A stretch of DNA of 64,000 nucleotides. Source: a virus. Location of the stretch: IMG/VR virus record IMGVR_UViG_3300037423_001503. One strand, given 5' to 3'. The translations under genes and the position numbers were made by a program. Position 1 is the stretch's first letter. Each line of letters begins with the position of its first letter. Of this stretch, positions 33,591 to 60,059 are shown piece after piece. Below the pieces are notes generated by a model, which saw nothing but the letters and a program-made list of their open reading frames with translations, had not been told where the DNA came from and did no database searches.

Positions 33591-34088
33591 GGGAGCTATC
33601 CATGTCTCAGTCTCACGGCGGTTCGCGTTCGCGCGGCGAGGAATTCGCTGAGTTGGTCTCAGTGATTCTCATCATCGGCGGGATCGCGTTGTGCGTGATC
33701 TTGCCGCTCGTCGAAGTCATCAAGTCCATCATCTAGCTCAGGGAGCTATCCAAGATGTTCAACAAGAGCCTCTTCAACCCCAACATCCCCTATCACGGTC
33801 CCGGCGTGTTCGCACTGCCGCTGAACCGGCGTGTCGCCTACGCGGACGAACGGATCGCCCACATCGTCGGCAACGTCGCCAATCGCGAGCGTCTCGGACC
33901 CGTTGTGGTCGTGGACGGCGAGACCTACACCTTCGACGCCTACGCGGAGCTACTCGCCGCCGCCTACCCGGGGCGGAACACCATCAACAACTAGCGCGTA
34001 GCCGCGCGGGCATCGGGCCAACCGGTGCCCCTGCGAGTGCGAGCTATCCAAGCCGTGCACGACTAGTCCTACAACTACAGGAGCCAAC

Positions 34089-34490
34089 ATGCCCACCCGT
34101 TCCGCTGACCGCGAACGTTTCCTCGCCGACATCATCACCACCGCCGTTGAGGGCGGGATCGGCTACTGGTCTCAGGTGTCGTCCTATCGCTGGTGGTCTG
34201 ACCTGATCGGTGGCAGCGGCGGCGCGACGAAGACGTCCGATACCTCCGCCGACGTCCATCCGCTGCTCGACGATGAGTCCGGCTACCGCGACGAAGGTGT
34301 GCACGTTGGGATCGAAGAGGTTGCGCGAGCGCTGGCAGTGCTCCGCAGCGACGCCGTCATCGCTGTCCATCCGACGACACGCGGGCGCATCCTTGAGGCC
34401 GACCGTGCCAACGACGCCGGAGACCTGGATTCCAACGACGCCGACATTGTCGTTCAGGTCGCCGTTCTGGGCGACGTCATCTACGGATAG
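34089..34490 (+). CDS. hypothetical phage protein
   Basis: TAVEGGIGYW...DAD.VVQ.A.LG.V.YG motif. Confidence 0.75.
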   Translation: MPTRSADRERFLADIITTAVEGGIGYWSQVSSYRWWSDLIGGSGGATKTSDTSADVHPLLDDESGYRDEGVHVGIEEVARALAVLRSDAVIAVHPTTRGRILEADRANDAGDLDSNDADIVVQVAVLGDVIYG

Positions 34491-34522
34491 GGAGCTATCC
34501 AAGTTCTACAACTAGGAGCAAC

Positions 34523-34870
34523 ATGATGCGCTACGCCATCATCTACAACATCACCGCACACACTGCCGAGCGCTACCTGCCCGGCAACTACGCCGTCGTC
34601 TCGATCGGCGACGACGGCAGTGTTCTCATCGCGGGCGAGGACCGCGCGGGCTGGACCCTCGACGACTACGTCCTGCCCCGGCTCGCCTCCGGCCTGTATC
34701 ACGGTCGGGAGGTTCCGCCGCCTCCGCCGTGCTTCGTCCCGAACGCACCCGACGAAATCTGCGACGAGTGCGGCGAGGAACGGCGTGCGCTCATCCATAC
34801 GGACACCACGTTGGACGCGCTCGACGCCGCAGACGGCCTGTACCTGCACCCCTTCAAGTCCTCCAACTAG
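34523..34870 (+). CDS. hypothetical phage protein
   Basis: GED.AGWTLDDYVLPRLASGL motif. Confidence 0.7.
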   Translation: MMRYAIIYNITAHTAERYLPGNYAVVSIGDDGSVLIAGEDRAGWTLDDYVLPRLASGLYHGREVPPPPPCFVPNAPDEICDECGEERRALIHTDTTLDALDAADGLYLHPFKSSN

Positions 34871-36196
34871 GAGCTATCCCCGTGGTCATCCGCATTGTCG
34901 ACAACGCAGACCCGATCGCCGCCGACACCGATGGGCTGCCGATCGACGAGGTGCTCTCGATGGTCGAGAACACCCACGGTGAGGTCATCATCCATGTCCG
35001 CGACGTCGTCGGTCACGTCCACGCGCTGCGCGCCGACCCGGCGCAGCAAGTCCAGGTCTACCACTAGGAGCTATCCATGCTCGGTCAGTTCTTCATCATC
35101 AAGTGCCCGCGCTGTTCGTCCGAGGCTTGCGTCCGTCGCGGACGCACCGGCGTCTGCGGGCGCGGCCATCACGTCCGCGTCAACCGCTAACCAAGGACTA
35201 CATGATGCGTCAGCTTTTCCTTGACCCCTACAACGTCGGGGAGCTTCAGCGCTGGCTGGGCTCGTACGCGCCCGACGAGCGGCTCGCGCAGGATCACGAC
35301 AAGGAACTGGTCATCACGGTTCAGGATGACGGTTCACTGCTCCTCGACGGCCGCGACGGGTTCACCGCGGAGGTCACGACGGCGGGAACGTTCATCGCTC
35401 ACTAAGGGAGGTTGTTGATGGACTTGCATGACTTGTACTCCATGTCGCTGCGTTGGCACGCCATGGGCGTGGTCGTGGACGCCGCCATCTCGTGCGGTGT
35501 TGGCGACGCCTTCGCCCTCGCCCAATGGGGCGGCTACCTGCCGCTCGACTCGCTCGACGGGGACCGCGCGTAGCCGCGTCGGCCGGGGTTCGCTCCGGCC
35601 GCTGCGAGTGCGAGCTATCCCACGCACTTCATGTCCTACAACTACCGGAGGTTCTTGATGTCCAAGTCGCAGTCGTTCTCGTCCCTGTCGGCGGCGATGG
35701 GGTACCTGAAGGCGCAGGCTCGCGCGGAGGCGAACGCTGCCGACGTACGGCGCGCCGCGAACCTGCGGCGGTCCGCGTCGATCGCCCGCAAGGCGCCCGG
35801 TACGGGGCCGCGCGTCGCCGCCTAACGCCATCGCGAAGTAGCCGGTTCGAAGCAGGACCCCGGCGACTAGCCGTCGCGGGCATCGGGTGAGACAATCCGG
35901 TGCCCGGACGAGTAGCCACCGAACCACTGCCGGAGCTATCCAAGTCCTACAACAACCAGGAGCAACGACACCATGTCGGACACGTATCAGTCTCAGGCCG
36001 CGCGCGACGCCCAGTGCGCCAACTACGGCGGTCCCGCGTACTGCGCGTACCTCGACCGGCATGCGCTCGAACTGCGCGACTACTACATGCGCCACGGCGA
36101 CGAGCTGCTCGCCGCCGCCATGCTGACCCGGTCGCTGAGCGAGGCGCTCGCGGGCAACAACGGCGAATAACAAGACCTACAGCTAGGAGCAACCAC

Positions 36197-36577
36197 ATGT
36201 CCTTGATGGTTAGTATCACCGACGAGCGCGGAGTCGTGCAGGTGTTCGAGCACGACGCCTACCTCGCCGACCATCCGAACGCCGACCTCGTCACGTGCGG
36301 TGCGTGTGGTCACACGTGGGATGACGCCATCGCGACCGCATGGACGCCCGCACCGTCCGGCCGGTGCCCGTTCGAGTACGACCACGCGCACGACGAGCCG
36401 CGCGGTGTGCGCGACTCCTACCTGACCTCGGCGCTGCGTGAGCAGCTTCAGCGCGGCCCCCAGCCCGACGAGGGCTTCTTTCGCTTCAAGGTCACCGGCG
36501 AGGGCGAGACCCAGTGGCTGAACGTGTCGCCTGCTCAGCTTGCGTCGATCATCAACACCCTCAACAACGACAACTAG
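36197..36577 (+). CDS. hypothetical protein
   Basis: TCGACG..WDD...TPAPSGRCPFEY. Confidence 0.7.
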   Translation: MSLMVSITDERGVVQVFEHDAYLADHPNADLVTCGACGHTWDDAIATAWTPAPSGRCPFEYDHAHDEPRGVRDSYLTSALREQLQRGPQPDEGFFRFKVTGEGETQWLNVSPAQLASIINTLNNDN

Positions 36578-36889
36578 GAGCTATCCAAGATGTCCATCAA
36601 CTCTGACGGCGAGCGCACCGTCCTCACTGACGACGCCTACAAAGAGGCGTTCGGTTGTGGCCGCGCCGCGGCCCGCGAGCACCTCAACAACCTCGAAGGC
36701 GCCTCGCGCAGCGAGGCCCACTACGACGACGTGCGCGAGTCGGTCCACCCGCGGTCGTTCTCAGAGGCGTTGGACGCTCTTGAGGACTTCGCCGCCCTGC
36801 CGATCAGCGAAGCCGTCGATGATGGCATCAACGAGGCGTGGAACGAATTCATCCACGACGTCGCCAACGACTACATCTAGGACCCCAAC

Positions 36890-37180
36890 ATGCCCAACAC
36901 GGACACCTACAACGGCTGGGCCAACCGCCCGACCTGGAACGTCAACGTCTGGCTTTCCAACGATGAGAGCCTCTACTGGACCGCCCTCGACGTCGTGCGT
37001 GGCTACAAGGAACACACCACCAATTGGTCCGCGAAGGGTGCGGGCCAAGCGTTGCGCGAACTTGTCTTCGCGAACCGCGACGACCGGGGCGGGTTCGGGG
37101 ACCTGAAGCGGACCGAGCTATCCAAGGTCGACTGGACCGCGCTTGGCGCGGCCTGGCTCGAAGACATCATCCACGGATAA
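36890..37180 (+). CDS. DUF7249-like phage protein
   Basis: YNGWAN..TWNVNVWL.NDE.LY...VDW. Confidence 0.75.
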   Translation: MPNTDTYNGWANRPTWNVNVWLSNDESLYWTALDVVRGYKEHTTNWSAKGAGQALRELVFANRDDRGGFGDLKRTELSKVDWTALGAAWLEDIIHG

Positions 37181-37324
37181 ACCATGAGCATCATCGATCT
37201 CATCGCGCTGACCCAGGCCTCTCTACTGGAGAGCGTCTTCGACTTCTACTACGACAACCCAGCGAGCCAGCCAGAGGGCTGGCACCGCGCTATCCGCGCC
37301 CACGTCAAGGCATAGGACGACAAC

Positions 37325-37525
37325 ATGACACGCAAGGACTACGAGTCGATCGCCCTGGTGCTGCGCTCCGAACGAGAGCGCAGCTTTGGCGATCAGACGC
37401 GCGACGCCGCCGCGATCGACGTACTCGACAACATCACCTACGCCTTGGCGGTCGAATTCAAGGCCGACAACCCCCGGTTCGATCGGGACCGGTTCCTCAT
37501 CGCGTCCGGCGCAGACCGCCGCTAG
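37325..37525 (+). CDS. conserved small phage protein
   Basis: MTRKDY..IA...DNPRFDRDRFL.A. Confidence 0.75.
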   Translation: MTRKDYESIALVLRSERERSFGDQTRDAAAIDVLDNITYALAVEFKADNPRFDRDRFLIASGADRR

Positions 37526-37809
37526 CGAGCTATCCAAGTTCTACATCTAGGAGCAACATGAAGGCCTTTGTCGTCTACATCGACAACGACGAAATCTCAG
37601 CCGCCGACCTGCGCGTGGCGACCATCCTGGGCGCTGACTCCGTCACGGACACCGAGCCCGACGTGTTCGTCGAGCGGATCGCCTATGACGGATACGGGCG
37701 CGACGTCCGGACCGGCGACAGCGCGGGCGACGCCTTGCTCGCACGGCGCTACATGGCCCGGCCCCTCAATCACGGCTACGCCGACACCAACGAACCCTTC
37801 TAGGAGTAC

Positions 37810-38343
37810 ATGATGAACAACGACATCCGCACCGCCGAGGTCGAGGTCTCCGAGGCCCCTGGCGGTCGCGGCGGCTATCACATCGTCCGCTCGCACGGCA
37901 TCGCAGGTACGTGGTGGGCGTGCTCGCGCAGTGGCGACGAGGCCATCTCGATGGCTGTCTACGCGTCGCTGTTCGGGGAGTGCCCGCGCTCGCCGTGGGA
38001 GCCGCCGATGGCACCCAGCGAGGTCGACGGCATGGGGTCGCCGATTGCGGTCTCATGGCGCAGCGAGTCCGACGCGCGAGAGGCCTTTGAGCGCATGGAG
38101 CGCGCGTGGTCGGCGGCCCTGCGGGGGACGCTGGTCGAGCTTCAGTCCTACGCTGAGGAGGATGACTCAGTCGTTCTCACCGACGAGGACTTCGAAGTCC
38201 TCAATCGGGGCGGCCACATCAGTCTCCCCGACGGGCGCGTCGTCATCGACGGTCTCGATTGCTGCGCGCATGTCCTGACGCCGGGCACCTACTGGGGCGC
38301 GGACGGCAACTGCTACGAGGTCCCCACCAAGGTCACCAACTAG
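37810..38343 (+). CDS. hypothetical protein
   Basis: AGGAG RBS. Confidence 0.6.
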   Translation: MMNNDIRTAEVEVSEAPGGRGGYHIVRSHGIAGTWWACSRSGDEAISMAVYASLFGECPRSPWEPPMAPSEVDGMGSPIAVSWRSESDAREAFERMERAWSAALRGTLVELQSYAEEDDSVVLTDEDFEVLNRGGHISLPDGRVVIDGLDCCAHVLTPGTYWGADGNCYEVPTKVTN

Positions 38344-39640
38344 ATGTTCTCGCGCCTCATCATCTGGCTTCTCGACCGCTACGTCGTCGGCGACTACGAG
38401 GCCAAGCACTCCGAGTACGAGACGATCCACGATCGACTCGAATCCGACCACACCAACTAGGAGCAACAACCCCATGGACTCGATCAAGTTCCAGGCCATT
38501 TCAACCGAGGTCAGTCGCGCCCTCGCAGCCGATGTGGTGGCGGTGTTCGACCTGCCCAACGAGGACGGCCTCAACCCGGGCGCGATCGTGGCGTGGTCGT
38601 CGCGGGAGCGTCCGACGCACGGAACGCACCTCGCCGTGGTGCCGCCCGACGCGCGCGCCTACGTCATCAACGGCGTCTACGACTTCGCGGAGCCCATCGA
38701 TGCGGTCAGCGACGCCTACCATCGCTGGCTGCGTCGCGTGAGCCCGGACGCCGCCGGATGAGCTATCCAATGCGACGACTGCCCAGCGATGAGCTACTCG
38801 AAGAGGCCCGGCGGCTCGACCGCGAGCACGGCGGGCGTTTCGATCGCGAGCGAGGCGAACTGATCAGCAAGGCCTACAGCTTGAAGGCCGAGGCTCATCG
38901 GCTCGGCCGCTCCGGCGCGTTCGACGACCTGAACGCTGTCGGCTTCTTCCACGTTCGGCCCTAACTACTTCAACAACTAGGAGAACACAAGTGAACACCA
39001 ACAACGGCGGCAAGGACAGGACGTATTTCGCACGCGATCCCTACGGATCGGAGCGCACAGCCTTCGACCCGTCGCGCTCACGTTTCGCCATCTACGTTGT
39101 GGGTCACGAGCCCAACGAAGAGGACGGCTGGCGCTACAAGCTCAGCGTCATCGACTACAAGTACAACGACAGCGACGCCTACCCCATCGATGCCATCGCA
39201 GGCGGCAACTCATGGTCCGAGGCGTTCGCACGGGCGGCCGAGATGGTCGAGCACGCGCTCGCCGCCGACCACTGCATCTTCTAGGACAAGAGAGCACCAT
39301 GCCCAGCATCATTTACTTCACCGACGAGGTGCCCGGTCTCGGCGACCACGTCGTGGTCAGGGAGAGTCCCGCCGACGTGGCGCACCTGCTTCGTGTCGCC
39401 GCCCGCAATGACCGGCCGTCGATCCGCGTCACCATCGGCGGCGAGCCCGCCCACCTGCCGGTCCGCCTCGTCGGACCGGTTCTCACCGTTCAGTAAGAAA
39501 GGAACACCAACCATGGCCCGCAAGACCGGCGCTCTCCGCGCCAACCACATCAACTCGGCCGACGCTCGCGACGCCCAGCGTCAGCGACGCCGCTCTCAGC
39601 GAGAGCGCGACCGCGTCAGTCCGCGACGCCGGAACGCCTG

Positions 39641-40024
39641 ATGCCCGAGTACATCAACATCGCGCCGACCGGCCTCTACAACGCCGCCCTGCGTCGGCAG
39701 GGCATCCGCCTCAAGGCCGTGGAGCGCGACGGCCAGGTCGGCCTTGAGTCCACCGAGGACGGCGAGACCGTCGCGGAGCAGATCCAGGACCTGGTCAACC
39801 GGGTTGTGCTGCTCGACCAGGCGGTCGGCTTCGTCATCGCCTCGAACACTGCTCGGCTCGCAGAGGCGGCGCGCGACCTCCGCAGCGCCTTCGCTGGCGG
39901 CGGCCTGACCCTCGATGACGCATGGGGCGGGGACGACGATCTCGACGACATGATCGCCGTCATCGAGGGCGCGACCAAGAACATCAACAACATCATCCGC
40001 GAGGAGGGGCGCGTCGGACACTGA
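39641..40024 (+). CDS. hypothetical protein
   Basis: Strong phage codon bias. Confidence 0.65.
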   Translation: MPEYINIAPTGLYNAALRRQGIRLKAVERDGQVGLESTEDGETVAEQIQDLVNRVVLLDQAVGFVIASNTARLAEAARDLRSAFAGGGLTLDDAWGGDDDLDDMIAVIEGATKNINNIIREEGRVGH

Positions 40025-40041
40025 CCGGCGAGCTATCCAAG

Positions 40042-40386
40042 ATGAAGGTCTACTCAAACACACTGACCATCAACGACCTCAACGTGGCGGCACACGAGGT
40101 TCGTGACGCTACCGGCGACGCCCTCTACGTGGGCGATGCCATCACGATTCCGCGCGCGCGGGTCCGACGGAACGGGTTCAACGTGCGGCTGACGAACTTC
40201 GACAGCCGTCGCGCCCGCAACACCGGCACCCACGGCGGCGCGAGAGGTGACGATCCGGCCGCGTCGTGGGATGATTACGGCCGATGGATCGCCCGCCTCT
40301 TCGTGCGGGACCCATCGGCACGGATCGCGCACTACGACGGGGCCGCCGATTTCCACGCCAAGACCAACAACAAGTACAACGTTTAG
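40042..40386 (+). CDS. hypothetical phage protein
   Basis: AASWDDYG.W.A.LF..DP.A motif. Confidence 0.7.
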   Translation: MKVYSNTLTINDLNVAAHEVRDATGDALYVGDAITIPRARVRRNGFNVRLTNFDSRRARNTGTHGGARGDDPAASWDDYGRWIARLFVRDPSARIAHYDGAADFHAKTNNKYNV

Positions 40387-40666
40387 GGCACCAACATGCC
40401 GACCACGCAACAACTACAACATGCGCGCGACGACCTGCGGCGGCTAGCGAGAGTCATCAACCACGCGGCCGACGAGTTGCACTTCGCTTCGTTGTCGTCA
40501 CTGACCATCGACCGCAACCCCAACGACGACAACTTGCGAGACGATCAGCGCCGCTCAATCGACCTCCACGTCGCGACCGCGCGCGGCGTCATCGAGATTC
40601 AGCCGCTCCTGTACGCGGAGACGCTATTCACGCTTCTATCCAAGCACGGACTCTAGGACCCCCAAC

Positions 40667-41953: not shown

Positions 41954-42182
41954 GAGGAGCTATCCAATGGACAACAGGTACATCATCTTCATGGTCAGCA
42001 CGCGACTGACCAACGACCGCAGCGACATCGCGCTCGTCAAAGCGATTGACCGCGAGGAGGCCAAGCGCCTTGCGTTCCCCTATCTGGGGCAGCACGCCGA
42101 CAACTATGAGGTGACGCCGCTGACGCGCCCCAACGACCTCGTCACCGTCGACATCCCCAACAAGATCAACTAGGACATCAAC

Positions 42183-43873: not shown

Positions 43874-44765
43874 AAGGGCATCAAGATGAGCAGACGAGTG
43901 CGCATCGAGGTCACCGAGTTCTACAACATCGAGATCGGTGACGAAAACGACGGCACCGACGCTGTCCTGGAACTCGACGAGATGGACTCCGACGACCGCG
44001 CCGCGCTCTATCAGGAGCGCACGATCAAGGTCTTCGACGACAGCACTGGCGAAGAGTTGCCGGTCGATCGGACGGTCGTCTGATGGCGACCAAGTACGAT
44101 GCCTACGTAGAGGCCATCAACCGCGCCGACGAGGCCATGCAGGAAGCGCTGCGTGTCCTGCCGCCCGACGCAAGCGAGCTATCCGTGCTGGTCACGAACG
44201 GAACGTTCCGTGACGTCCGCGCGACGCTCACGATGGCCTACGGGCTTCAGAGTGAGGCCCAGGATGGGGCTCGCTGACATCGCCGCCCTCCTGGCGGCGT
44301 ACGAGAACGAGGAACTCAACTACGACGAGGAGGTCGCGTTGTTCCAGCAGTTGCTCGACACAGGTGTGATCACGCACCTCCAGGGCGCCTATCACAGGCG
44401 CATGAATCAGTTGATCGAGGACGGTGAGGTCAGTGTCGCAGGACAGACCTAAGGCCGTCGCGTGGATCGAGACGCCGATCGACAACATCAAGTACACCAT
44501 CAGGGGGATCGACCGCAATGACGGCGCTCCTCTAGGCGGGGTCTACGTCGAGCGCGAGACCGACGGCGGCGTCGACCAGGCGCAGGTCGAGGTAACCCAG
44601 TGGGGACAGACGCTGCGCTTGGACTTCATCCAAGGCTGGCTCAGCGAGAGCATCATCGACGCTGACGACGAACACGACCGGCGATGGAGCCAGCGGCCGG
44701 TTGGTCTGTGGGCGCTGATCTGGCGGACCTGGATGGAATCGCTCATCACACGAAAGGACTAACCA

Positions 44766-45125: not shown

Positions 45126-45847
45126 TGCTCGTCATCGTTGGCGTCGTCTGTTCCTTCGTAGCGTTCCTCTCCGGCTTCGCCGCCGCGGCGCTATTCGAGT
45201 CATCGACGAAGTGTGAGGACCGCGCAGGCAGCGCACTGCTGGCCCTTGCGGGCGTGATGGCCGCCGCGACTACGGCGGGGTGGATCTACGCGGCGTCGCT
45301 GTGCTTCTGATCGCTTGACGTAAACCAACGAAAGGAATAAGGTGCTCACCATGTCATCCGTGTCTTGGACCCTCATCTCAGAACTCCCTGACGGCCATCG
45401 CGTGTTCGAGTTCAACCGAACCGGCCGATACGCGATCGTCGACCGCTCGGGCTATTCGCCCGATCAATCCGACGACGGCCGGCTGTGGCTCAACTTCAAC
45501 GAACCGATCCTGCTGGGCGGCCACGAAACGGTCGTGCCGGTCAAGAACAGTGGCGGCTCACCCTATGGTGTGTTCGTCGATCCGCCGACCGCGATCGCCC
45601 TAAGCGAGCGCTTCGATTGGGCGCTCAACGTGCGCGGTATCCCGTTCAAGGTGGTGCGTGACAATGAGCGATAATCACGCCATCAATCAGGTCGCCCTGG
45701 CGCTGCGCGCGGCGTGTCGCGCGCATCCTGATCAGCGGGTGATGCAGGTGTTGGTCAACGCGTGCGGCGTCGATCCGTTCTACCTCGAAGATGACGAAGC
45801 GCGAGCGAGACTGCACGCCTATGCCAAACGATCCTAGGGAGCTATCC

Positions 45848-46976: not shown

Positions 46977-46988
46977 AAAGGAACCCCA

Positions 46989-47309: not shown

Positions 47310-47489
47310 ACGTCGACTCGGAGTCCGCTCGTCGAATCAGGGCGATCGTCGAGTCCCTGCACGAGATCGCCTATACGTACGAGGAGTGCGGAATGGCGAA
47401 CGAGTGTGATGAGATCAACGCCGCCGCCGATCAGGTCAGGCGCCTGCAAAGCCTGCCCGACACCGACGACGACTGAGGGGAGCTATCCA

Positions 47490-47852: not shown

Positions 47853-48853
47853 GGCATTTGCTGTTGTTGATGCTCTTGCTGGCCGGGATGTGCCCGGAGT
47901 CAGCACGCGCCGACCATCGCGTCGATCCTCGCGCGCCGGGCGCGGCGGCGGCGGTGGATCGCTACGCGCACCAGTTGGCGATCGATGAGACCTCGAACGG
48001 CGTCATCGTCACATACACCGGCGTTCGGCGGTACCCGCATTCGCACTTCGCGCTGAGCTTCGCACAGACGCGGAAGAACCAGGTCAACGACGTCGTAGTG
48101 CCGGTGGTGGCACACCAGTGCCCAGGTCCATACTACGTTGTCCATCTTATCGGTGAGCGCGTTGACTGCATTTGGCGCTTCACCGACGTGATTCCTGCGG
48201 GAACGGAGTGGCCATGAGGCGTTCACTGTTGTGCTTGTTGTTGCTGGTCGGTGCGCTTTTCTGCTTCGGGATGGCGTATGCGATCTACGAGCGCGGCCAG
48301 CGCACCGTGGTCTCTGTCAGCACCGGCGAGCGCGTCACTAGGATCCCGCAGCTTCACAGTGCCGCGTACTGCGACTTCATGTTCAACCCGCGTATGCCTC
48401 CTCAGGTCCACGGCACGATCCGGGCGGGCGTCGGTACGATTCGCACGTTCGCTCAGCAGGTGCTGTGTTTCGAAACGGCCAAGGAGCAGGCGCTGGTGCG
48501 GCCCCAAATGACGCGGATGTGCCGTCAGGAGCACTTGGTGTGCTGGCAGAAAAGGATCCGATGACAGACACGAAGCGGTTCGTCGTAGTGCCTAACCACA
48601 TCTGCGGACCGGCCGTGATCAGACACGGCAACCTCGTCGATACGTGCCCGACGGTTGAATCGGCGCAACGGATCGCCGACGTCCTGAACGCGCTCATCGT
48701 GGATGCCGACGCGTTGACATTCTCATACGCGATTCCTGAGTTGAACAAGCTCAGGGACCAGGAGAAGGATCGCGTCATTCGCTTCATGGGTAAGTACATC
48801 GGAGCGCACTGCCGATAATCGCGGCCCGGTCCTCGCCGACCGGGTCGTTTTTA

Positions 48854-48912
48854 TTTACAGTAATTTTGTCAAGTACTATAACTTGACATCTCTGCGGAGG
48901 GTTTGCTAGGTT
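48854..48912 (+). promoter_or_regulatory. tandem sigma-A-type promoters with overlapping inverted repeat
   Basis: TTTACA-17-TATAAC and TTGACA-18-TAGGTT; TGTCAAGT-N6-ACTTGACA. Confidence 0.7.
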
Positions 48913-48918
48913 CGTGGA

Positions 48919-49170
48919 GAACACGCGGCCGGTCCTTTGGCCCGCTCGGCCGCCGTGGACACCAGCGGCCCGGAGGTTCCGCATAAGGGGATAGGCATGC
49001 GGGGCCTCCGGGTAGTAATTCCAGCCATGCGCCGTGTCATCTTGCTTCTAGCCTTGCGCCCAATGGGCGCCCCTACGTGGGGTCTCGGGGAACGCCACGC
49101 CCACTACGAGACCGCCGAGCGCGCCTACAGGGCGCGCAGGACCCGCCTGCATGCGGGCCGACCTCTGCAC
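48919..49170 (+). ncRNA. candidate structured ncRNA / long leader
   Basis: Six hairpins including a 16-bp stem 48969-49012. Confidence 0.45.
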
Positions 49171-49175
49171 CCACG

Positions 49176-49502
49176 ATGATCACCCTCAGCGAGCTATCCA
49201 GCGCCGCGCGCGCCAACGACCACCTCGCCGCCGCGGGCGTGCCGCTGGACGAGATCCTCATTGACTTGAATCTTGAGCCAAGCTCATTGATCCGCGCTGC
49301 TGAGCAAAGGGCGCTGCGGGTCGCGCTGCTCCACGACGGCTGGTCAGAGCTTGAGATCGACGCCCTTGGCGGGCTGATCCAGCCCCGGACGGTGCGCGTC
49401 GAGGAAGCGACGAACTTCTGGATGCCCACGTTCACCGCGTTGGTCATCGACGGCGCGGCCATGATTCGCCGGGCCGAGCGCGAGTTCTCCTCTCGCGCCT
49501 AA
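49176..49502 (+). CDS. hypothetical protein
   Basis: MITLSELSSAA... Confidence 0.55.
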   Translation: MITLSELSSAARANDHLAAAGVPLDEILIDLNLEPSSLIRAAEQRALRVALLHDGWSELEIDALGGLIQPRTVRVEEATNFWMPTFTALVIDGAAMIRRAEREFSSRA

Positions 49503-49876: not shown

Positions 49877-51193
49877 ATGTCCACTCAGACCAACACCGAG
49901 ACGCGTCGCGGACAGGTCACGCTCGTCGCCATGGAGAGCGCGAACATCGACACGACGTGCTACCGGGGATCGGCACCGCTGAGCGCGCTGTCGGCGATCT
50001 CGCAGGCCGACGTGTTCGACCAGGTCAAGAACCCGGGCGGCCTTCAGCGCGACCTGTCGCCCAAGCACGCCGCCGACGCCTACAACTACGCGAGCCGCGA
50101 GCCGAACCCGGAGTTCCCGCGCGCGTTCCCCGAGGTGATGCTCAACGTGCGCGACGAGGACGTCGTGTCCGTCGAGACCATCAACACGGGACGCCAGCGC
50201 CAGGTCAAGGTCATCAAGTTCGACTTCGACCTCAGCGCCATCGACGACGCCGTGAAGGCCGGGAAGATCGCCGTCTCCCGCATGGACGGCAACCACCGTC
50301 TGTGGTTCGGTGACGGCGACGACAAGAACCGGCAGTCCGTCGACACGCTCGTGCCGTTCCAGATCCACGTCGGGCTGACGCCGGAGCAGGAGGCCAACCT
50401 CTTCACCGACGTCAACGCCAACCAGAAGGGCCTCAACTCCAGCCACCTCCACGTCCTGCGCTCGCGCCTGACGCCGGAGGAGCAGGAGCTTCGCGACCAC
50501 CCCGAGCGCGTGTTCGCGATGCGGCTCGCCGACGACGTGGAGTCGCCGTGGCACGAACTCGTCCACATGGGCGGCTCGAAGGCGGGCTCGCGGCAGGCCG
50601 GGCAGGACCGTCCGGTGGCGTTCGTGACGCTGGAGGCGGGGGTCAAGCGGACGCTCAACAAGTCCGTCTACATCCACGACCTGCCGAACCCGAACGCGCA
50701 GTACGTGCTGATCCGCAACTTCTGGAACGCCGTCAAGGCGGTGTTCGAGGAGGAGTGGACCAACCACAAGGACTACCTGCTGCTGCGCAACCTGGGCGTC
50801 CTGGCGTTCTCGATCTTCGGCGGCACGGTCATCGATCGCTCGATGGCGCGCGGCGAGGTCACGGTCGAGGCGATGCAGGCCTACATCGAGCAGGCCAAGG
50901 ACGTCTTCGACTGGGCGAAGTCCGCGACCGGTGAGCGCTCGCTGGCCGGCATGTCGGGCAACCGGGCGGCGCTGATCGTGTCCGGCGAACTCGCCAAGGA
51001 TCTCGTCGACCCGGGCGAGTCGGCGGTCATGAAGTCGATCCAGGAGCGGCTGCTCGCCGACGCGGGCTCGATCCCAGACGAGGTCCCCTCGGAGTGGGAG
51101 CGGCGCCCGGAGGTCTCGGAACTGGTCGCCGCCGGGGTTCGGCCCAGCGTGGGTGACCTTGAGGGCGACGGTCAGTCGCCTGACACCGAGTAG
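49877..51193 (+). CDS. DGQHR-domain protein (DndB-like, ParB/Srx superfamily)
   Basis: GLQRDLS, FPEVML, RMDGNHR, EANLFTDVN.NQK motifs; AGGAGG RBS. Confidence 0.88.
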   Translation: MSTQTNTETRRGQVTLVAMESANIDTTCYRGSAPLSALSAISQADVFDQVKNPGGLQRDLSPKHAADAYNYASREPNPEFPRAFPEVMLNVRDEDVVSVETINTGRQRQVKVIKFDFDLSAIDDAVKAGKIAVSRMDGNHRLWFGDGDDKNRQSVDTLVPFQIHVGLTPEQEANLFTDVNANQKGLNSSHLHVLRSRLTPEEQELRDHPERVFAMRLADDVESPWHELVHMGGSKAGSRQAGQDRPVAFVTLEAGVKRTLNKSVYIHDLPNPNAQYVLIRNFWNAVKAVFEEEWTNHKDYLLLRNLGVLAFSIFGGTVIDRSMARGEVTVEAMQAYIEQAKDVFDWAKSATGERSLAGMSGNRAALIVSGELAKDLVDPGESAVMKSIQERLLADAGSIPDEVPSEWERRPEVSELVAAGVRPSVGDLEGDGQSPDTE

Positions 51194-51235: not shown

Positions 51236-51262
51236 AAGGGCGGCTTGCGGGCCGCCCTTTCT
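51236..51262 (+). terminator. intrinsic terminator
   Basis: AAGGGCGGCT-TGCG-GGCCGCCCTTTCT. Confidence 0.75.
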
Positions 51263-52645: not shown

Positions 52646-53183
52646 TGCCTCCCATGCTATACAACAAGTCAACCGGCACCTACATCCCGACCGCTGAGTT
52701 CGAACTGTACCTGGATGGCGAACTCATCAAGACCGCCGTAGCGACGTGTCGCCGCGACGCTGGCGAAATCTTCGACCTGGAGGTCGAGGACTACAACACG
52801 CTCCGCGTCGACCCGAGTCGCTACGAGGTCAAGGTCCGTGAGCACAGGTGCTGGCCCGGAGCGATGGCCTACATCTGCTGCTTCTGCCAAGCCAAGATCG
52901 AGAACGACTGATGAGCGTCTACCGCGACACGTTGGCCGCCCTCGTCGCGTTGCCCTCAAACGGCCACGGCATTCGAGCCGTCGATGTGGCCTATCTGGTC
53001 GGTCACCGCAGCGACGAGGCCGCCGTCTTCAGGTATCTCAAGACCCTTGAGATCAATGGCTATGCGCTGCGGACGAGGCACTACGAGACGCTTTGGGAGC
53101 CGGATCTAAATGAGCCCGCCGACTGGTCCTTCGAGCCTACCGTGGCCGGCCGCTACGCGATCCTAGCCGGGAAGGATCTCTGA

Positions 53184-53390
53184 GTGTTCATCATCCGTCT
53201 CAATCTCGGCAACGCAGCCATGCGGACCCCGGGCGACGTCGCCAACGCGCTGCGACGCACCGCCGACAGTCTCGACCGCATGGACCGCTACACGATGGGC
53301 CGACAGACCGACGGCCTCATCAAGGACATCAACGGCAACACCGTCGGTAGCTGGGGCGTTCGCGCCTGGCCCGACGAGGAGGACATGTAG
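53184..53390 (+). CDS. conserved small phage protein
   Basis: NAA...I.DINGNTVGSW. Confidence 0.7.
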   Translation: MFIIRLNLGNAAMRTPGDVANALRRTADSLDRMDRYTMGRQTDGLIKDINGNTVGSWGVRAWPDEEDM

Positions 53391-54468
53391 ATGCCGCTCA
53401 CACTGGCTGACCCGCCGCCGATCGAGGAACTCGATCACATCATCGTCACTGCCAACCGTTCCGTCGCCTACAGCGGCTACGACCCCAACAAGGCCTGGAT
53501 TCTGTTGACCTACATCAACGGAACCGGCTGGGCCATGTGGGGCTCAGAGCCCAACGAGCAGGTGGCGCGGAAGACGGCCTTCGAGCGCACCCGCAGGACC
53601 GGTTACCGGTACGCGGTGATCGCGTACTCGGAGATCGTGGCACGCGATCGTGCGCTGAGGACTCAGGCGAAGCAGAGGAGCGCGAGATGAGGTACAAGAC
53701 GCGCCTGCTTTGGGAGGAGGACGTCTCCTCGGTCCACACGTTCGAGATTCATGACGACTTCGCAACCGACGAACTCGCCGCTGAGGTTGCACACATGATC
53801 TGCATGTACGAGGAGGCCAACAAGGTCGACTATGTGCGGCGCGATGTCGCCTCGGGCAGCGTGTATCCCATCAGTGGCGCGCTTCGCGTGACCTACAACG
53901 GTTCGATCCTGGGAGAACTCTGATGCGCTACATAGCCAAGCTGTACTTCGATGACGGCTCGGATACCGACGTCGAGGTCGACATCGACACCAACGAGACC
54001 GACAACCCGCGCATGCTGGCCCAGTACGCGGCCGAGGCGTACGCGGAGACCATCAAGGCGACTGTCGATCGCGTCTGGCGAGACGAGGCGCACCTCTTCG
54101 TCTCCGGCGGCATGTGGTATGAGCGCGGGGTCAACGGCTACGACGAGAGAGGATCGGTCTGATGGACACCGCGATCAGGGCGTTGCGTCAGATGGGGCGC
54201 CTGGAGATTCACTCCATCGGTCGACCGTCGCCCTACCTGGCCGGTCGATCCGGCACAGGAGTCAAGGTCCACGCTGTGGCCCCCGGGTCGGTTGTCCGTG
54301 ACCCGGAGACGTTCGAGCGCGTCGGCACCTCGCTGTGCAGCGAACGCGTCACGGCGTCGGCGCTCGAACACTTCGACCCGCAGGCCCGCGACGCGTGTCA
54401 GCGCTGCTCAGACAGTGTGCGCCGGCTTCGCGGTCCGGCAGCGTAATCACTCAGAGAAAGGAACCAAT

Positions 54469-54670
54469 CATGAGCTTCAAAGTAGAGGTGATCGCAGACA
54501 ACTCCGGTAAGTGGTACAGCAACTCCGTCCGCTTCGCCACCGCGCCGGAGGCAGAGGCTGCGGGTCACGACTTGGCCGGACGCTGGACGCTCGTCCAGGA
54601 GTGGCGTGTCGCCGAGTCCGACGAGCCCGTCAACTACATTTGGCGGGCCGGCCAGGCGGTGCCGGTCTGA
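54469..54670 (+). CDS. conserved small phage protein
   Basis: SFKVEVIAD.SGKW..N..RFAT..EA. Confidence 0.7.
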
Positions 54671-55493
54671 TGTTCTACGCAAAGACACTCAGAGGCCGCG
54701 CCTGGGCTGACTCGGTTCCGGCACGTACCAAGACGTCAGCGCCTGTCGGTGGCGCGCCCGCACGCGTCTTGATCGGCATCGAGGACGACGGCAGCATCGT
54801 TACGGCGGTGATGGATGTCGCGGAGGCCGTGGATCTCTATCGCGGGCTCGGCGTCGCGATCCGTGACGCAGGTGGCGAGGTGCCGGTCTGATGAGGGAGG
54901 TTCGATACGAGACCGCACAGAGTGATCGATCGGTGACGATCAAACGCATCAAGGTCGGCGAGGTCAATCCGTTCTCCAAGACCGGTGCTTGCTACGCCGA
55001 CATCGTTGATGAGCTTATGCTCGAAGAAGACCCCAGCGGCTCGTTCACCATCTACATGGATCACTCAGCCGGCGATCCCGACAGCAATCGGTGGAGCGAG
55101 ATAACCATTCGACGTGAGGACGCACTCACGATCTTCGAGTGGCTCGGGTCAAAGTAAAAGGAGCACCATCGTGACCGTTCACCACTTCACGTTCCAGCGC
55201 AAGGCCCATGGCGACGACGTCATCGAGATCGGCAAGGTGCTCGATCGCCTCGCCCAAGAAGGCAAAGAGGTCGTGACAGTGTCGCACTCCGTGCGCACTA
55301 TCACCTCCTTCGATCATACCTATACGTATGTGGACGTCGTCGTTGTTACGCGCGAGTCCGGTAGCACGTATGAGCGCGGCCTCATCAACCGCATGGAGGA
55401 CTGGCTCGGCGTCCACGAGGGCTATATCGACGAACATGAGGACGAATATCGCGCGCTTCAGCGAGAGGTGCGCGCCTACCTGAGAGGAGAACA

Positions 55494-55805
55494 ATGAGCC
55501 CGGCCATCACACCCGACGAGGCCTTCTCGAAGGCCGCCGAAGGCCAACACATACCCAACGAAGTCTTCGAAGTCTTCAACGAATTGATCGTCAAGAACCT
55601 CCGAGATGGTAAGGCGCGTATCCAGCAGGATGAGGCGGTCACGATGATTGAGGCGCGTATGACCGTGCAGCGGCAAGACATCTACGGCAACCGGTGGCTC
55701 GACGTAGAGGACGCCTACCGCGCCCAGGGCTGGGCCGTCGATTACGACAAGCCCGCCTACAACGAGACACACTCAGCAACCTTCACCTTCAGGAGATCCA
55801 CGTGA
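55494..55805 (+). CDS. conserved phage protein
   Basis: IP.EVFE.FN.LI...WLDVE..YR..GW.V.YDKPAYNE. Confidence 0.75.
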   Translation: MSPAITPDEAFSKAAEGQHIPNEVFEVFNELIVKNLRDGKARIQQDEAVTMIEARMTVQRQDIYGNRWLDVEDAYRAQGWAVDYDKPAYNETHSATFTFRRST

Positions 55806-56990
55806 CCGACATCCTCGCTGAGCGCGAGCTATCCCTGCGGCGGCATCTGAAGACCATCAATCCGACCTGGGCCGCCTACTACGTCGGTGTCGCCGAGGAG
55901 GCCATCGCCGCCGCCGAGGCCGGCGAGGACGAATTCAAGATTGCCCTGCCGGGCGGTCGGTCGGTCACAGCCGAGAACGTGATCTCCGCGTTCTCGCTCA
56001 GCGGTTTCGTCGGAGGCGATGATGACTAGCACGGTCTACGTCGGCGACCGCGTCTGGGCTGAATACCTAGACATCGGTATGTCACACCGTGAGATCCACG
56101 CAGGCTACGCGACCGTCACGGCGGTTCATCCGACGCCGCGCGTGCTCCCCGACGGGGCGAGCCACGACCTGTCGGTGCCGTGGATCGGTATCAAGCACAA
56201 GGTCGATGGATGACCGGCGTACGAAAGCACTGGATCGCATGGGCACCGATCGGTGTCAGCGATTGGGAATCGCCGGCCCTGATCTTCGACTACGAAGGTG
56301 CGGCCGATCGATATCGCGCACTTGGCTGGACCGTTGAGGGGCCATTCGAGCCCGCGCGGAAGGCCGTCCAACTCAGCGACATCGTCGGCTACATCGCCAC
56401 GCTGAACGACTTCTACAACTGGAACCGGTGGATCATCGACCGCCTTGAGGAGCGCTTCGGTGAGTAACGGGGAAGCTATCCAGATCATCGACGAGATGAT
56501 CGCCGAAGTCCTGGAACGCAAGCGGCGTTTCTCGAAGCCGATCCTCGGTGGCGCTCGGCAAGTGCCGTTCGACGGTGAGGTGCTCGGACTGTTCATTCGA
56601 TACGGAGTCCTCGAAGATGCACGTGCTCGCCTGACCGGCCAGGAACTCGACCACCAGGCTTCAATCGAGCGCTTCCACTCAGGAGCAGCGATCAATGCGT
56701 GATCTGCTGCGGTTCCCGCTTGATCTCTATGTGTGCCCTGAGTGCCAGACGGTCGATCAGGACCAATACTTCACAGGCGGGCACGACTTCGCCGCCAACC
56801 CCAGGTGTCACCGCAACCAGCGGGTCCCGGTCCGTGTCATCGCCTTCGATACCGCTGTGTGGGTGCTGACGACAGCACTCGTCGGCGCTGGCATACCGCG
56901 GCAGCGTGCAGAGGTCACAGCGATCGAGCTACTCAACGACGCTGAGCGCATCGCCGACGTCACAGCCCAACCATATACAGAGGAGGAGCT

Positions 56991-57515
56991 ATGAAGGTCT
57001 ACGCCGCCTATGTCTACAACGATGCAAGCCCGCCGCGCTTCGTGGGCATGTACTCAACCTACGCAAAGGCCTTGCTTGCGTCGAGCCCGCGCATCGACGA
57101 CATGGTCAAGGAGTTCGAGATCGAGCCCGACGATCGCTCATTCCCAGCGATCTCTGGGACCATCACGGCGTGCGAGAACTGCAACGTCGTCCTCGCCCGC
57201 GACGGCGAAGTTGTCGCACAGCGACCCAGCACCGTATGCTCGCATCTCAACGCCGGGACCTACGTCAATCTCAACTCTGTCGTCGATGCTGTCATGGACG
57301 CGCAGGCAGAGTTGCAGACGCCGTTGGGGTTCTACCGCATGTATGACCCTAAGTACGAGCACGCGCTACCAATCGAGTACGACGATCACATCGAGGATCG
57401 CCTAGCGAAGACGCTCGCTCGTCTGCACGCGCTGCTCGCCGCCCTCGGGACGCCGATGTATCGGCCGGCGCAGCACGATGAGGTCGAGGCGATCGACCTA
57501 AAGGCAACGCCGTGA
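56991..57515 (+). CDS. hypothetical protein
   Basis: AGGAGGAG RBS. Confidence 0.6.
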   Translation: MKVYAAYVYNDASPPRFVGMYSTYAKALLASSPRIDDMVKEFEIEPDDRSFPAISGTITACENCNVVLARDGEVVAQRPSTVCSHLNAGTYVNLNSVVDAVMDAQAELQTPLGFYRMYDPKYEHALPIEYDDHIEDRLAKTLARLHALLAALGTPMYRPAQHDEVEAIDLKATP

Positions 57516-57720
57516 AGGTCTACGTGGCCTTCCACAGAGGTGAGTTCTTTTCGGCCACGACGTGCCGCCGGGACCGAGTTCGTTCGTCGGTGTCTACGTG
57601 ACGCGCGAGGAGGCGCTACGACGATGCTGGCCTGAAGGCGACTCGCGCTTCGTCGAGGAGCGCGAGCTTGAGCCTGCTCACGAGGAAGAGCAGTCGTTAC
57701 CGCAATGGAACTTCCCTTGA
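57512..57720 (+). pseudogene. frameshifted small gene related to the N-terminus of 56991..57515
   Basis: MKVYVAF... continues as FVGVYVTREEAL...ELEP in the -1 frame after TTCTTTTC. Confidence 0.5.
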
Positions 57721-57751
57721 CATCAAGCCGCGACTAGGCTAGGTTCATGGC

Positions 57752-57964
57752 ATGACGCCGGAGCGCGCCTTCCATCTGTTCGGAGACGTGCTCTCGAACC
57801 GTGACATCAGGATCTTCTCGCGCAGTGATCTCGCCCACGGACGTGTGTGGTTCGTCCACGCTACCGTCGGCGATGAGACGCGCGAGGTGTTCCAGACCAA
57901 CGATCCCCGCCTGGCGGCGCGCTGGCGCGAAACCTACACACGACTGGAAAGGAACGCTCAGTGA
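57752..57964 (+). CDS. hypothetical protein
   Basis: Leaderless after TTGACA-17-TAGGTT. Confidence 0.65.
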   Translation: MTPERAFHLFGDVLSNRDIRIFSRSDLAHGRVWFVHATVGDETREVFQTNDPRLAARWRETYTRLERNAQ

Positions 57965-58305
57965 AGAAGAGAATCTTCAAATACTCGCTTGAGGTCGAGC
58001 CGCGCCAGATGCTTCATCTTCCGGCAGGCGCAGAGCTTCTCTCGGTGATCGCCGACGCCCTCGGACCGAAGCTGTACGCGCTCGTGGACCCAGAGGCGTC
58101 GGCCGAGCCGCGCATCCTACGCACAGTCGTTGCCGGCGAGGTCGTCGAAGGGGATGCGCTCGGCGCCTACATCGGAACCTACGTGGTCGGTGAGGGGCGC
58201 TTCATCGGCCATCTGTTCGAGCAGGCAGTCGGTGTCGGCGACGAACGCGATCGACGTTGGGACGCCGATATGGCTGACCTGCGGCGGGAGTTGGTGGCCT
58301 CGTGA
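57961..58305 (+). CDS. DUF7352-like phage protein
   Basis: IFKY.L...LP.GAE.LSV...YIGT...HLFE. Confidence 0.75.
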   Translation: MKKRIFKYSLEVEPRQMLHLPAGAELLSVIADALGPKLYALVDPEASAEPRILRTVVAGEVVEGDALGAYIGTYVVGEGRFIGHLFEQAVGVGDERDRRWDADMADLRRELVAS

Positions 58306-58856
58306 GCGGGCTCCCACTCCGGCAACGAAACGCAGGCCGGGTCTGGGACCTGACCGGCGTCCACGGATCACCGACGCGGATGCGTCTCGCCAATGGCCAT
58401 GGTCCGCAGTTGCCGCGGGCAGAGGAGCGGATCACCGTGGTCGAGGTTGGCTCTTGGCGGGCCGTCTGGGTGGCGCTGCGCGCCGTCGTTTCGGGCCAGG
58501 ACAGCCAGGCCGGAGGGCGAGCGATGAAGGTGTTGGCAGGCCGCTTGAGCGACGCGGATCGCAGGATCATCTTCGAATCGAACGAGTCGGGGCGGCCCGT
58601 CCTGATCGCGACGCTCGACGCCACGGTGACCTACGACCAGCGGCGCCCGACGCCGTACGACGTAGCCCCGATGCAGGCAGTCGGCGTGGCGAAGACCTGG
58701 GATCACGGCTACGTCGAGCTTGGCGGCTGGTCGTTCACGACGCGCATCCCATGGACGTCGATCGTTGCCGTGTGGTGGCGGGATGAGGCGCCCAGCGCAC
58801 CGGACGTCGCCGCCCGGATCGCCGAGTTCCAATCGGACACGTTGGCCGAAAAGTGA
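58302..58856 (+). CDS. hypothetical protein
   Basis: GTGA coupling. Confidence 0.55.
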   Translation: MSGLPLRQRNAGRVWDLTGVHGSPTRMRLANGHGPQLPRAEERITVVEVGSWRAVWVALRAVVSGQDSQAGGRAMKVLAGRLSDADRRIIFESNESGRPVLIATLDATVTYDQRRPTPYDVAPMQAVGVAKTWDHGYVELGGWSFTTRIPWTSIVAVWWRDEAPSAPDVAARIAEFQSDTLAEK

Positions 58857-59378
58857 GCGCTACATGATCTGGGTAGCCGTCACGGCGCTGGCGTGCCACA
58901 ACGCCTATCTGCTTAGGAAAATTCACCAATCAAATCTACGGATCGACACAACCTGGGACGCGTGGCGATCCGACATCCCGTTGCTCAGGCGGCGCGTTGC
59001 GCGGCTGATTCGCAAGGAGGGCTAAACCTGTGCATGACAGACGCTGGAATTCCACCACAGTCACTGTGACGCTCTACTGGGACGGCTTCACCGACCACGA
59101 CATTGAGGTACTCGAAGATCTCGACTTCGCGGTCCTCAAGGAGGGCAAGTATTTGGTTCTAGAGCGCACCGTGAACGGAAACTGCGACGCAGTCGCCAAC
59201 GCCGGCATGGTCCTGCGCGACGTCGAAGACGCGCTCGTAGATCTCTATCTCAGCGTCTTTGATGTGTCGGTCGTGTCGAGAAAGGGCGCGTGATGGTCTT
59301 CGTTGCGTTGGTTTTGGTAGTGCTCTTTGTTGCCCTCTTCTGCGGACTGCTTGTCGCGATGATCGATCGGATGTCGTG

Positions 59379-60059
59379 ATGCTTCCCGACGACCTCATCG
59401 AGCGCCTTCGATCCGGCGATGACCCGCTCCACATGGCGAAGAAGCTGCTTCGCGCGGGGCATGATCTCGGGCAGCACACCAAGAGCGTCGCCAACTGCCA
59501 CGTCATCGGTCTCGACTCGATCGTGCTCTTCGATTTCGGCGAACACGGCATGATCCGCTACTACGACTACTCGATGCTCGACGGGTCGCTCAGCAGCCTC
59601 TACAACGAGGACGGTGGCTTCACGATCGGTGTGCACAACCACCGCTACGAGATCGCCAAGATCCCCCTCATCGGTAGCTACGCCAACGTCGTAACTGCGA
59701 TCGACGAGACCGATGGACGCGGCCGGATGCTGCTACACGAGTACGAGTTCTCGTCCGGCATCGGAGGCGAGCTAGGGGTCACGTATCGCGACGCACGCCT
59801 GATGCGGCCCTTCGATGTCGAGGTCATGATGCCCGGCTCGTCGGTAATCATGCAGCCCGAGGATCTCCACACCGTTGTCGTGCCGCGCCGTCAGCGCGCC
59901 GCTTGGATGGTGATCGAGGGCTCGCGACGCGATGACATCACGCCGCTGCTGTACTCGCCGACCCGGGACCTTGTCCTCAACTCAGATCATCTCTACCAAC
60001 CCATTGCCGGGCGCGCCAAGTCGGCGATCGGCAAGCTCATTGAGGAGCTATCCGAGTGA
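59379..60059 (+). CDS. cupin-fold protein
   Basis: GVHNHRY (HxH) and EDLHTV. Confidence 0.65.
   Translation: MLPDDLIERLRSGDDPLHMAKKLLRAGHDLGQHTKSVANCHVIGLDSIVLFDFGEHGMIRYYDYSMLDGSLSSLYNEDGGFTIGVHNHRYEIAKIPLIGSYANVVTAIDETDGRGRMLLHEYEFSSGIGGELGVTYRDARLMRPFDVEVMMPGSSVIMQPEDLHTVVVPRRQRAAWMVIEGSRRDDITPLLYSPTRDLVLNSDHLYQPIAGRAKSAIGKLIEELSE

Follow-up and report, generated by a model that had tools for sequence, protein, structure and literature searches.

The 9-mer GAGCTATCC, which recurs along the early region of an uncultured phage, is certainly a selected, sense-strand-specific cis-regulatory word of the early gene block, and our preferred, still tentative, reading is that it serves in DNA as an operator or roadblock site for one regulator. 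The stretch analysed, called the window below, comprises the opening 64 kb of one virus record of 139,534 bp (IMG/VR record IMGVR_UViG_3300037423_001503, here genome G000), and the word had been singled out in a first-pass annotation of this DNA. Genes were called in-house by codon likelihood, and both genes and promoters are predictions throughout.

Number, strand and conservation of the word

In the window, 20 exact copies of GAGCTATCC lie on the + strand and none on the − strand, against a chance expectation of 0.37 and a maximum of 2 in dinucleotide-preserving shuffles. The recount matched the coordinates of the first-pass annotation exactly and agreed with its statements that all 20 copies are on the + strand, that twelve of them fall within 33.6–38.8 kb and that chance would supply fewer than one. 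Scanning both strands of the whole record yielded no copy beyond these 20, and the earlier claim that the word is missing from the − strand and from the left 33 kb was upheld; all copies are held in a span of 33.6–60.1 kb. One-mismatch variants of the word were depleted in G000 (4 seen, ~13 expected), and the word is thus all-or-none, either exact or absent. Its extended consensus in G000 is [G/C]GAGCTATCC-A[A/T]G.

The IMG/VR relative G001 (139.9 kb) shares 70–90% nucleotide identity with G000, with many cassette replacements, and carries 21 copies over 26 kb, all on the homologous strand. Every one of the 14 G000 sites alignable to G001 holds the exact word, and 131 of 135 motif columns were identical, compared with 84% in the ±30-nt flanks (Fisher p=1e-5). 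The remaining G000 sites fall in cassettes not aligned to G001, suggesting that a copy comes and goes with its gene. DNA contigs also revealed cassette joints and co-occurring strain variants, one of which is without gene 36197-36577 and retains the motif 36578-36586 at the joint. Between the relatives G013 and G014, five aligned sites were exact and four were lost, with 2–5 substitutions each, and some intragenic copies were conserved within regions of 68–83% identity.

Further relatives were found through neighbours of the gene for the DGQHR protein (49877-51193) and through PolA alignment. Several are fragments, in which absences are weak. Copies are given as same-way/reversed.

L006, found via the DGQHR gene: 5/0 (L007, a shorter contig of the same phage, 3/0)
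L008, found via the DGQHR gene: 4/0
G003, PolA identity 75%: 6/1
G006, PolA identity 60%, GC 54%: 6/1
G007, PolA identity 61%, 100% complete with terminal repeats, GC 68%: 12/0
G013, PolA identity 40%: 16/0
G014, PolA identity 39%: 10/0
G015, PolA identity 41%: 3/0

Counted on both strands of G000, G001 and the other relatives, the word was thus distributed unequally, with 103 co-oriented and 2 reversed copies in the family. The same 9-mer is clustered upstream of the replication module in relatives with PolA identities of 39–75% and GC contents of 54–68%, and it belongs to a family of uncultured large actinobacterial phages of about 80–140 kb. The earlier view of a strand-specific cis element that is not merely a ribosome binding site (RBS) was supported. 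The DGQHR-bearing early regions L009 and L010 had zero copies. At 6309-20380 of L010, at least seven instances of (C)TTGACA-N17-TTGCTAAACT-N7-ATG were observed, and many early genes there have their own strong leaderless host-type promoter.

The pattern of copies also bears on a genome-polar DNA signal unrelated to expression, that is, strand-specific nicks as in T5-like phages, a modification target or a 'linker' for cassette exchange. At least six G000/G001 homology-block boundaries lie within 10 nt of a copy, and class II leaders of the form motif-AAG-TCC-TAC-AAC-TAG look like decapitated starts of the form motif-AAG-ATG-TCC-TAC-AAC. The L006 copy at 14505 follows the orientation of the genome and not that of the gene, and in the complete G007 the cluster starts at the physical end, ~950 bp from the right, terminal-repeat end, which fits the suggestion of the first-pass annotation that a regulator silences or protects first-injected DNA. 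However, homologous exchange needs more than nine bases, the edges of mosaic blocks coincide with gene starts in any case, nicks or modification need no link to gene starts, leaders and promoters, and purifying selection on single sites argues for direct function. We therefore regard such a signal as quite improbable.

Placement at gene starts, in leaders, in promoters and in coding frames

The copies in G000 and the terminator that closes the motif-rich block are as follows, all on the + strand; SD denotes a Shine–Dalgarno sequence and ORF an open reading frame.

33593-33601, +: motif copy, 0 nt before ATG 33602; the preceding G gives GGAG
33743-33751, +: motif copy, 3 nt (AAG) before ATG 33755; exact orthologue in G001
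33993-34049, +: hairpin cassette with flank AGCGCGTAGCC, covarying stem-loop, then GAGTGC and motif 34041-34049; 39 nt before ATG 34089
34492-34500, +: motif copy in 5′ leader, 22 nt before ATG 34523 (SD of this start: TAGGAGC)
34871-34879, +: motif copy right after a TAG stop, 2 nt before GTG 34882
35068-35076, +: motif copy right after a TAG stop, 0 nt before ATG 35077
35566-35620, +: second hairpin cassette with the same flanks and another stem; motif 35612-35620; 37 nt before ATG 35658
35933-35941, +: motif copy in 5′ leader, 31 nt before ATG 35973; related hairpin upstream
36578-36586, +: motif copy right after a TAG stop, 3 nt before ATG 36590
37115-37123, +: intragenic copy, Glu-Leu-Ser of ORF 36890-37180; no nearby start codon
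37527-37535, +: motif copy in 5′ leader, 22 nt before ATG 37558
38760-38768, +: motif copy overlapping the upstream stop, 1 nt before ATG 38770
40030-40038, +: motif copy, 3 nt before ATG 40042; preceding C, hence no GGAG
41957-41965, +: motif copy, 1 nt before ATG 41967
44176-44184, +: intragenic copy, Glu-Leu-Ser of ORF 44083-44277; in-frame GTG directly after
45839-45847, +: motif copy, 0 nt before ATG 45848
47480-47488, +: motif copy, 1 nt before ATG 47490
48821-48848, +: strong intrinsic terminator closing the motif-rich block
49191-49199, +: motif copy, codons 6–8 of ORF 49176-49502 (108 amino acids, aa), beside the DGQHR gene
55826-55834, +: intragenic copy, codons 9–11 of ORF 55802-56029; exact within a region of 74.5% identity
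60045-60053, +: motif copy at the 3′ end of ORF 59379-60059 and 2 nt before GTG 60056

Non-coding DNA, ~10% of the region, holds 16 of the 20 copies, and 17 of the 20 lie upstream of the terminator. As had been proposed, many copies sit on or just before the spacer between SD and start: 11 of 20 are 0–3 nt ahead of a start codon, with GGAG formed in 8 of these 11. Another five lie 22–39 nt ahead of a start having its own SD, and the rest are intragenic. The five copies previously described as intragenic are indeed all in the frame GAG-CTA-TCC (Glu-Leu-Ser), but two of them need qualifying, namely those at 60045 and 44176, which also stand at or near a GTG; in a relative, the orthologue of ORF 60056-60433, which starts at the first of these codons, is a called gene of 125 aa.

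The position of the word relative to one and the same gene can differ between genomes. Ahead of gene 33602, the word abuts the start codon in G000 (0 nt) and stands 27 nt away from it in G001; for gene 47490, whose two versions are 95% identical, the word of G000 corresponds to plain AGGAGGAGGAG in G001. The gene at 49176-49502 carries the motif at codons 6–8 in both G000 and G001 and, in L008, 32 nt upstream, in the leader. The DGQHR gene follows directly downstream, and the 108-aa product, whose fold was not recognised, has conserved counterparts in G001, L006 and L008.

Among the 103 family copies, 31 lie within 0–5 nt of a start codon, 25 in a leader 8–50 nt before an SD and start, and 47 in neither position. 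A G at −1, which gives GGAG, was present in 25 of the 31 start-adjacent copies but in only 14 of the 72 others, indicating that the core is GAGCTATCC and that SD function is an add-on. Genes on the same strand contain 39 of the 103 copies and genes on the opposite strand none; 26 of these 39 are in the Glu-Leu-Ser frame, a bias that may reflect codon cost, since xGA+GCT or TAT would be required in the remaining two frames. The duplex of the word with the 16S 3′ tail was estimated at −8.4 kcal/mol, rank 1376 of 4096 among GGAG+6-mers. Extended SD/16S pairing was thus set aside, the bipartite GGAG...AUCC duplex with the 3′ tail being possible yet ordinary, and no further 16S complement of the word was found. 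In 23S the word has two wobble complements, both buried in domain V and no more than chance would give. Motif positions were barely more unpaired than random ones (0.45 vs 0.39), giving no general local RNA structure.

That the word has no function of its own, being a stereotyped RBS-plus-spacer spread through duplication, would agree with the eleven copies that do work as SD and spacer and with the generally stereotyped junctions of the early block (TAG-GAGC-nnAAC-ATG). Against this, the word is exact within divergent flanks and at 39% PolA identity, many copies are intragenic or far from starts, near-miss variants are depleted, and G at −1 occurs almost only where the word serves as an RBS. 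In our view the conservation data refute this explanation, to which we give next to no credence.

Five copies in G000 and G001 end a cassette of ~57 nt, consisting of a conserved 5′ flank, a stem-loop, GAGTGC and the word. The stem-loops differ among the five yet stay paired, with compensatory changes in 7 pairs. An operator at the messenger RNA level, at which a protein, RNase or RNA reads the word in early transcripts and boosts, blocks or cuts at the 5′ edges of translation units, is possible and nearly as likely as a DNA-level site, ranking close behind it. It would give the early genes a common switch of translation or decay, as for targets of T4 RegA or RegB. The strict sense orientation (103 vs 2, with no copy in an opposite-strand gene), the 11 start-abutting copies in G000 with GGAG in 8, and the covarying hairpins directly upstream of five copies all speak for it. 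One orthologue has a strong SD in the place of the word, so that the word can substitute for an RBS, and in many relatives the word heads a short A/C-rich leader followed by AAGGAGG and the start. The phage is moreover rich in RNA and translation functions (tRNAs, CCA-adding enzyme, RNA ligase, RtcB), and a role in translation is favoured in the literature on start-associated sequences (SAS), which are considered below. On the other hand, 46% of family copies are near no start codon, −10 boxes 0–2 nt upstream would begin the RNA within the word, and the L006 copy at 14505 is antisense to the local genes. Pairing with the 16S tail is unremarkable, with no other 16S complement and no antisense partner above chance, and none of the four one-mismatch variants is wobble-compatible.

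Promoters provide a second context. A TANNNT box ending 0–8 nt upstream was found for 12 of 103 copies (2.9 expected), six of them with a TG extension and all in relatives, and predicted promoter overlaps occur in G003, G006, G007, G013, G014, L006 and L008. The usual distance from −10 to +1 is 6 nt; gaps of 0–2 nt, as at five sites, would put the start point inside the word, and gaps of 4–6 nt at its first bases. Of the reversed copies, only G003 10287 is intergenic, and it occupies the spacer of a leaderless promoter, TTGACG-N16-TAGACT-N7-ATG; the copy at L006 14505 is oriented as in the rest of the family although the genes that meet there are on the minus strand. In G013 and G014 (L047 1740-2340 and L049 1560-2130), GTGTGAC-N4-GTCACAC stands ~20–25 nt before extended −10 boxes that abut the motif; this palindrome looks like a classic dimeric operator beside the asymmetric word.

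In G000, host-type promoters (TTGACA-N17-TAGGNT) are common and several are leaderless; on the + strand of 30–45 kb, no TTGACA-type host promoter was found. This absence from a block in a genome where such promoters are otherwise plentiful would suit a signal to the transcription machinery, either a phage-specific minimal promoter or a non-template-strand loading or pause site for a factor that modifies RNA polymerase, resembling T4 middle/late promoter words or ops/RfaH. Exact conservation of this kind in a deep family is a typical trait of promoter words, copies lie at unit starts and, in relatives, at promoter positions −6 to +9, where the non-template strand is exposed, and the motif-less L010 places strong leaderless promoters before many early genes. 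Nevertheless, we consider such a signal rather unlikely. Neither a sigma factor nor a single-subunit polymerase was found with Pfam, the spacer to the start codon varies over 0–5 nt, which precludes exact leaderless starts, and no −10-like box stands at a fixed downstream distance (8 vs ~10 expected); on the same count, the motif was rejected as a −35-like box. An autonomous promoter has no need of an association with an upstream host −10, twenty loading sites per 26 kb far exceed known ops/nut systems, and the word is unlike the actinobacterial rrn boxA, TGTTCTTTGAGAA.

Several observations concern the surroundings of the block. Promoters of the form TTGAC(A/G)-N17-TA(A/G)G(G/T)T, with ATG 6–7 nt later, were seen at 45315-45351 and 57717-57754 and at genome positions 67179, 68123 and 71993, and many genes outside the motif block look leaderless from their sequence. 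At 48854-49175, the terminator is followed by a TTGACA-N18-TGCTAGGTT promoter and then, up to ORF 49176, by a GC-rich leader of ~250 nt that looks non-coding and may form a structured RNA. At 29700-30400, the divergent junction that precedes the early block of the + strand, other short words are repeated, namely GCGTCTCACG (at least five), CAAAGAGCGAAC (4–5) and GACAATGACA; this junction could be an origin or control region. Directly before the first + strand early ORF, at 30558, ARAGORN called an unusual tRNA-Ala(tgc), the anticodon being at position 29 (30447-30525, +). The calcineurin-type metallophosphoesterase gene at 63697-64000, continuing to 64434, was recognised by its DxH...GNHD...GH motifs; its orthologue in G003 stands behind a TGATACTCT promoter and the motif, with a second motif copy in-frame inside the gene.

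As a whole, G000 represents an uncultured soil phage of ~140 kb and 62% GC with tRNA arrays, a CCA-adding enzyme and an RNA ligase. Beyond the window it has RtcB, an SNF2 helicase, a DnaB-like helicase, a family A polymerase, and terminase, portal and capsid genes, and it probably has an AEP-type primase, to judge from homologous genes in L006 and L009. The part from ~30 to 64 kb consists of small + strand ORFs, nearly all without a family match, and the replication module comes next. No close cultured phage was found: megablast of 12 kb was empty, and the tail protein and PolA were at most 30% identical to those of GenBank phages. No family was reported by Rfam within 29–64 kb, and six-frame Pfam, for which the RNAP control itself was silent, gave no sigma factor, T7-type polymerase, integrase or WYL domain.

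A DNA-level site and the search for its reader

On the grounds that copies overlap predicted promoters, that two cases are off-strand and that many copies are remote from any start, we tentatively favour a DNA-level site and propose the following scenario. One sequence-specific factor, which would be neither the DGQHR protein nor the 46989 protein, may dock on the word in DNA. Copies that overlap the −10 or +1 of a host-type promoter may act as operators, and copies between, and occasionally inside, cistrons as polar roadblocks, so that operators and roadblocks together would gate or shut off the early block as a unit. Overlap with the RBS would be secondary: the site may simply fill the 10–15-nt intergenic gap, an added front G making its GAG double as GGAG.

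Several points weigh against this scenario. No binder was found, nor an integrase or gp71-like repressor, and six-frame Pfam detected no sigma factor or T7-type polymerase. No copy in G000 itself overlaps a recognisable promoter. Repressor/operator pairs usually drift, and a word without a single change at 39% PolA identity would be expected rather of promoter words or of sites recognised by host machinery. As the internal promoters are all in co-oriented operons, read-through RNA would hold the full word and is compatible with an RNA reader, and the covarying hairpins beside five copies suggest RNA structure. The two wrong-strand cases are single observations, with a chance of ~0.01–0.02 each.

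No early G000 protein was common to all motif-bearing lineages, which tells against a DNA-level site as well; the set that they share consists of replication and structural genes only. The first-pass annotation had named two proteins as candidate binders. By two methods, neither the DGQHR protein nor the 46989 protein had a homologue in G007, with its 12 copies, or in G003, G006, G013 and G014, and the DGQHR gene is present without the word in L009 and L010; on their sequence distribution, both appear uncoupled from the word. The suggestion of an RNA regulator fared no better as regards an antisense RNA partner, which was not above chance in the phage: wobble-tolerant complements (GGRTRGYTY) numbered 7, with ~17 expected.

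Other candidates were also considered. The 82-aa helix-turn-helix protein (94368-94616), the best conserved of the small proteins of this type, was not found in G013 and G014, a further point against a DNA-level site with this reader; it is 59–84% identical across G003, G006, G007 and G008, a conservation about equal to or above that of PolA, and its gene (10368-10616 in the numbering of L012) lies just upstream of the terminase genes. The 166-aa core protein (92723-93223) is probably a RuvC-type resolvase, by its invariant D-E-H-D, and not a regulator, and a conserved 149-aa protein encoded before the terminase, with a weak PHROG match to 'DNA binding protein', is probably the small terminase. 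WYL proteins are encoded behind motif-bearing promoters in L006 and L008, but G000 is without a WYL domain. Mimicry of boxA/nut was dismissed, as the Nocardia rrn leader and spacer have TGTTCTTTGAGAA and TTGTTTGAGAA, unlike the word. A DnaA box and a Chi-like site were considered and dropped; the CACA half of the former is absent, and the tight link to gene starts does not fit the latter.

The word was not enriched in five actinobacterial genomes. In Nocardioides sp. URHA0020 (L196 7740-8440; G021:C7, ~139.7–140.4 kb), eleven tandem 62-bp units, each a GC hairpin followed by TGAGCTATCCACC, lie between two convergent ordinary genes. The units are near-identical and have no unique spacers, which excludes a CRISPR array, and they may have arisen by fortuitous amplification, or else this possible host genus may truly employ the same word.

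It is also conceivable, if unlikely, that the word is a family-wide 'early-gene tag', frozen and read on the sense strand by a reader unable to change. Such a reader could be a conserved host machine or a new single-strand or strand-specific reader and would act alike at promoters, in leaders, at ribosome sites and inside genes. The tag would then be a layer of control that is neither operator nor RBS, or a strand-specific nick or mark on first-entering DNA.

Likeness to start-associated sequences and stoperators

The first-pass annotation had named the stoperators and SAS of mycobacteriophages as analogues, and these are the right kinds: by analogy, the word appears to lie in kind between Cluster K SAS and Cluster A stoperators, its closest described counterparts being the SAS and ESAS of Cluster K and EF phages and the Cluster A stoperators. 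Reportedly, the L5 stoperators were characterised by Brown et al. in 1997 as asymmetric, one-way and intergenic, with one true operator. SAS were described in 2011 in Cluster K mycobacteriophages (PMC3203893), and their function was still given as not known in a 2024 study of Adephagia (PMC11373665); Cluster EF Microbacterium phages have the SAS GGGAAAGGACCCC (PMC7302621). Stoperators of the L5 type are asymmetric, lie in short intergenic gaps and point one way relative to transcription, one of them being a true operator (PMC3203893).

The word resembles SAS in being short and asymmetric, in having 10–20 near-identical copies in one orientation with rare reversed copies, and in its confinement to the non-structural, early part of the genome. 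Both overlap the SD and often the upstream stop codon, both hold an SD core (here GAG) and are conserved beyond 16S pairing, and both are conserved across sub-groups before unrelated genes. In both, a promoter (here predicted) and/or an inverted-repeat element stands ahead of some of the copies. About half of SAS copies have an extended upstream element made of a SigA-like promoter and an inverted repeat; here, 2 of the 20 G000 copies have the hairpin cassette and −10 boxes are ~4-fold enriched in relatives, none of these being in the Cluster K form. The sequences are unrelated, however, and the conserved part lies 3′ of the SD core in the word rather than around it. Whereas 'virtually all' SAS copies stand 3–9 bp upstream of a start, start-abutting copies make up only 55% in G000 and 30% family-wide, and conserved intragenic copies occur here. 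The word is also invariant over much deeper divergence (GC 54–68%), and its phages are of ~80–140 kb with no integrase found, in contrast to the 60-kb temperate siphoviruses that carry SAS.

With the Cluster A stoperators (L5 gp71 sites, GGTGGMTGTCAAG), the word shares many asymmetric sites that lie in short intergenic gaps, oriented with transcription, and some copies that overlap a promoter, here predicted and in relatives only. Unlike stoperators, it comes without a detected gp71-like repressor or integrase, its sites are limited to one block rather than spread over both arms, and it has no degenerate copies; moreover, it is constant between lineages, whereas immunity specificities diverge. 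In mode, though not in membership, it may also be likened to the targets of T4 RegB and RegA, as it overlaps the SD or start of many early genes, which would allow joint shut-off, and some copies are intragenic. It differs from the 4-nt GGAG of RegB and the loose AU-rich site of RegA in being an exact 9-mer, and no RegA or RegB homologue was evident.

SAS and stoperators are among the few recurring regulatory features of actinobacteriophages, and SAS have stayed unexplained since 2011. The word offers a clean 9-nt bait for pull-down and a one-line marker with which to find and orient the early region of these phages in metagenomes. It widens the class to a deep uncultured family of 80–140-kb phages, in which not a letter of it differs between lineages that have only replication and structural genes in common besides, and it is found in promoters, leaders, ribosome sites and coding sequence alike. 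We would argue from this breadth of contexts and lineages that its reader is very conserved or part of the host.

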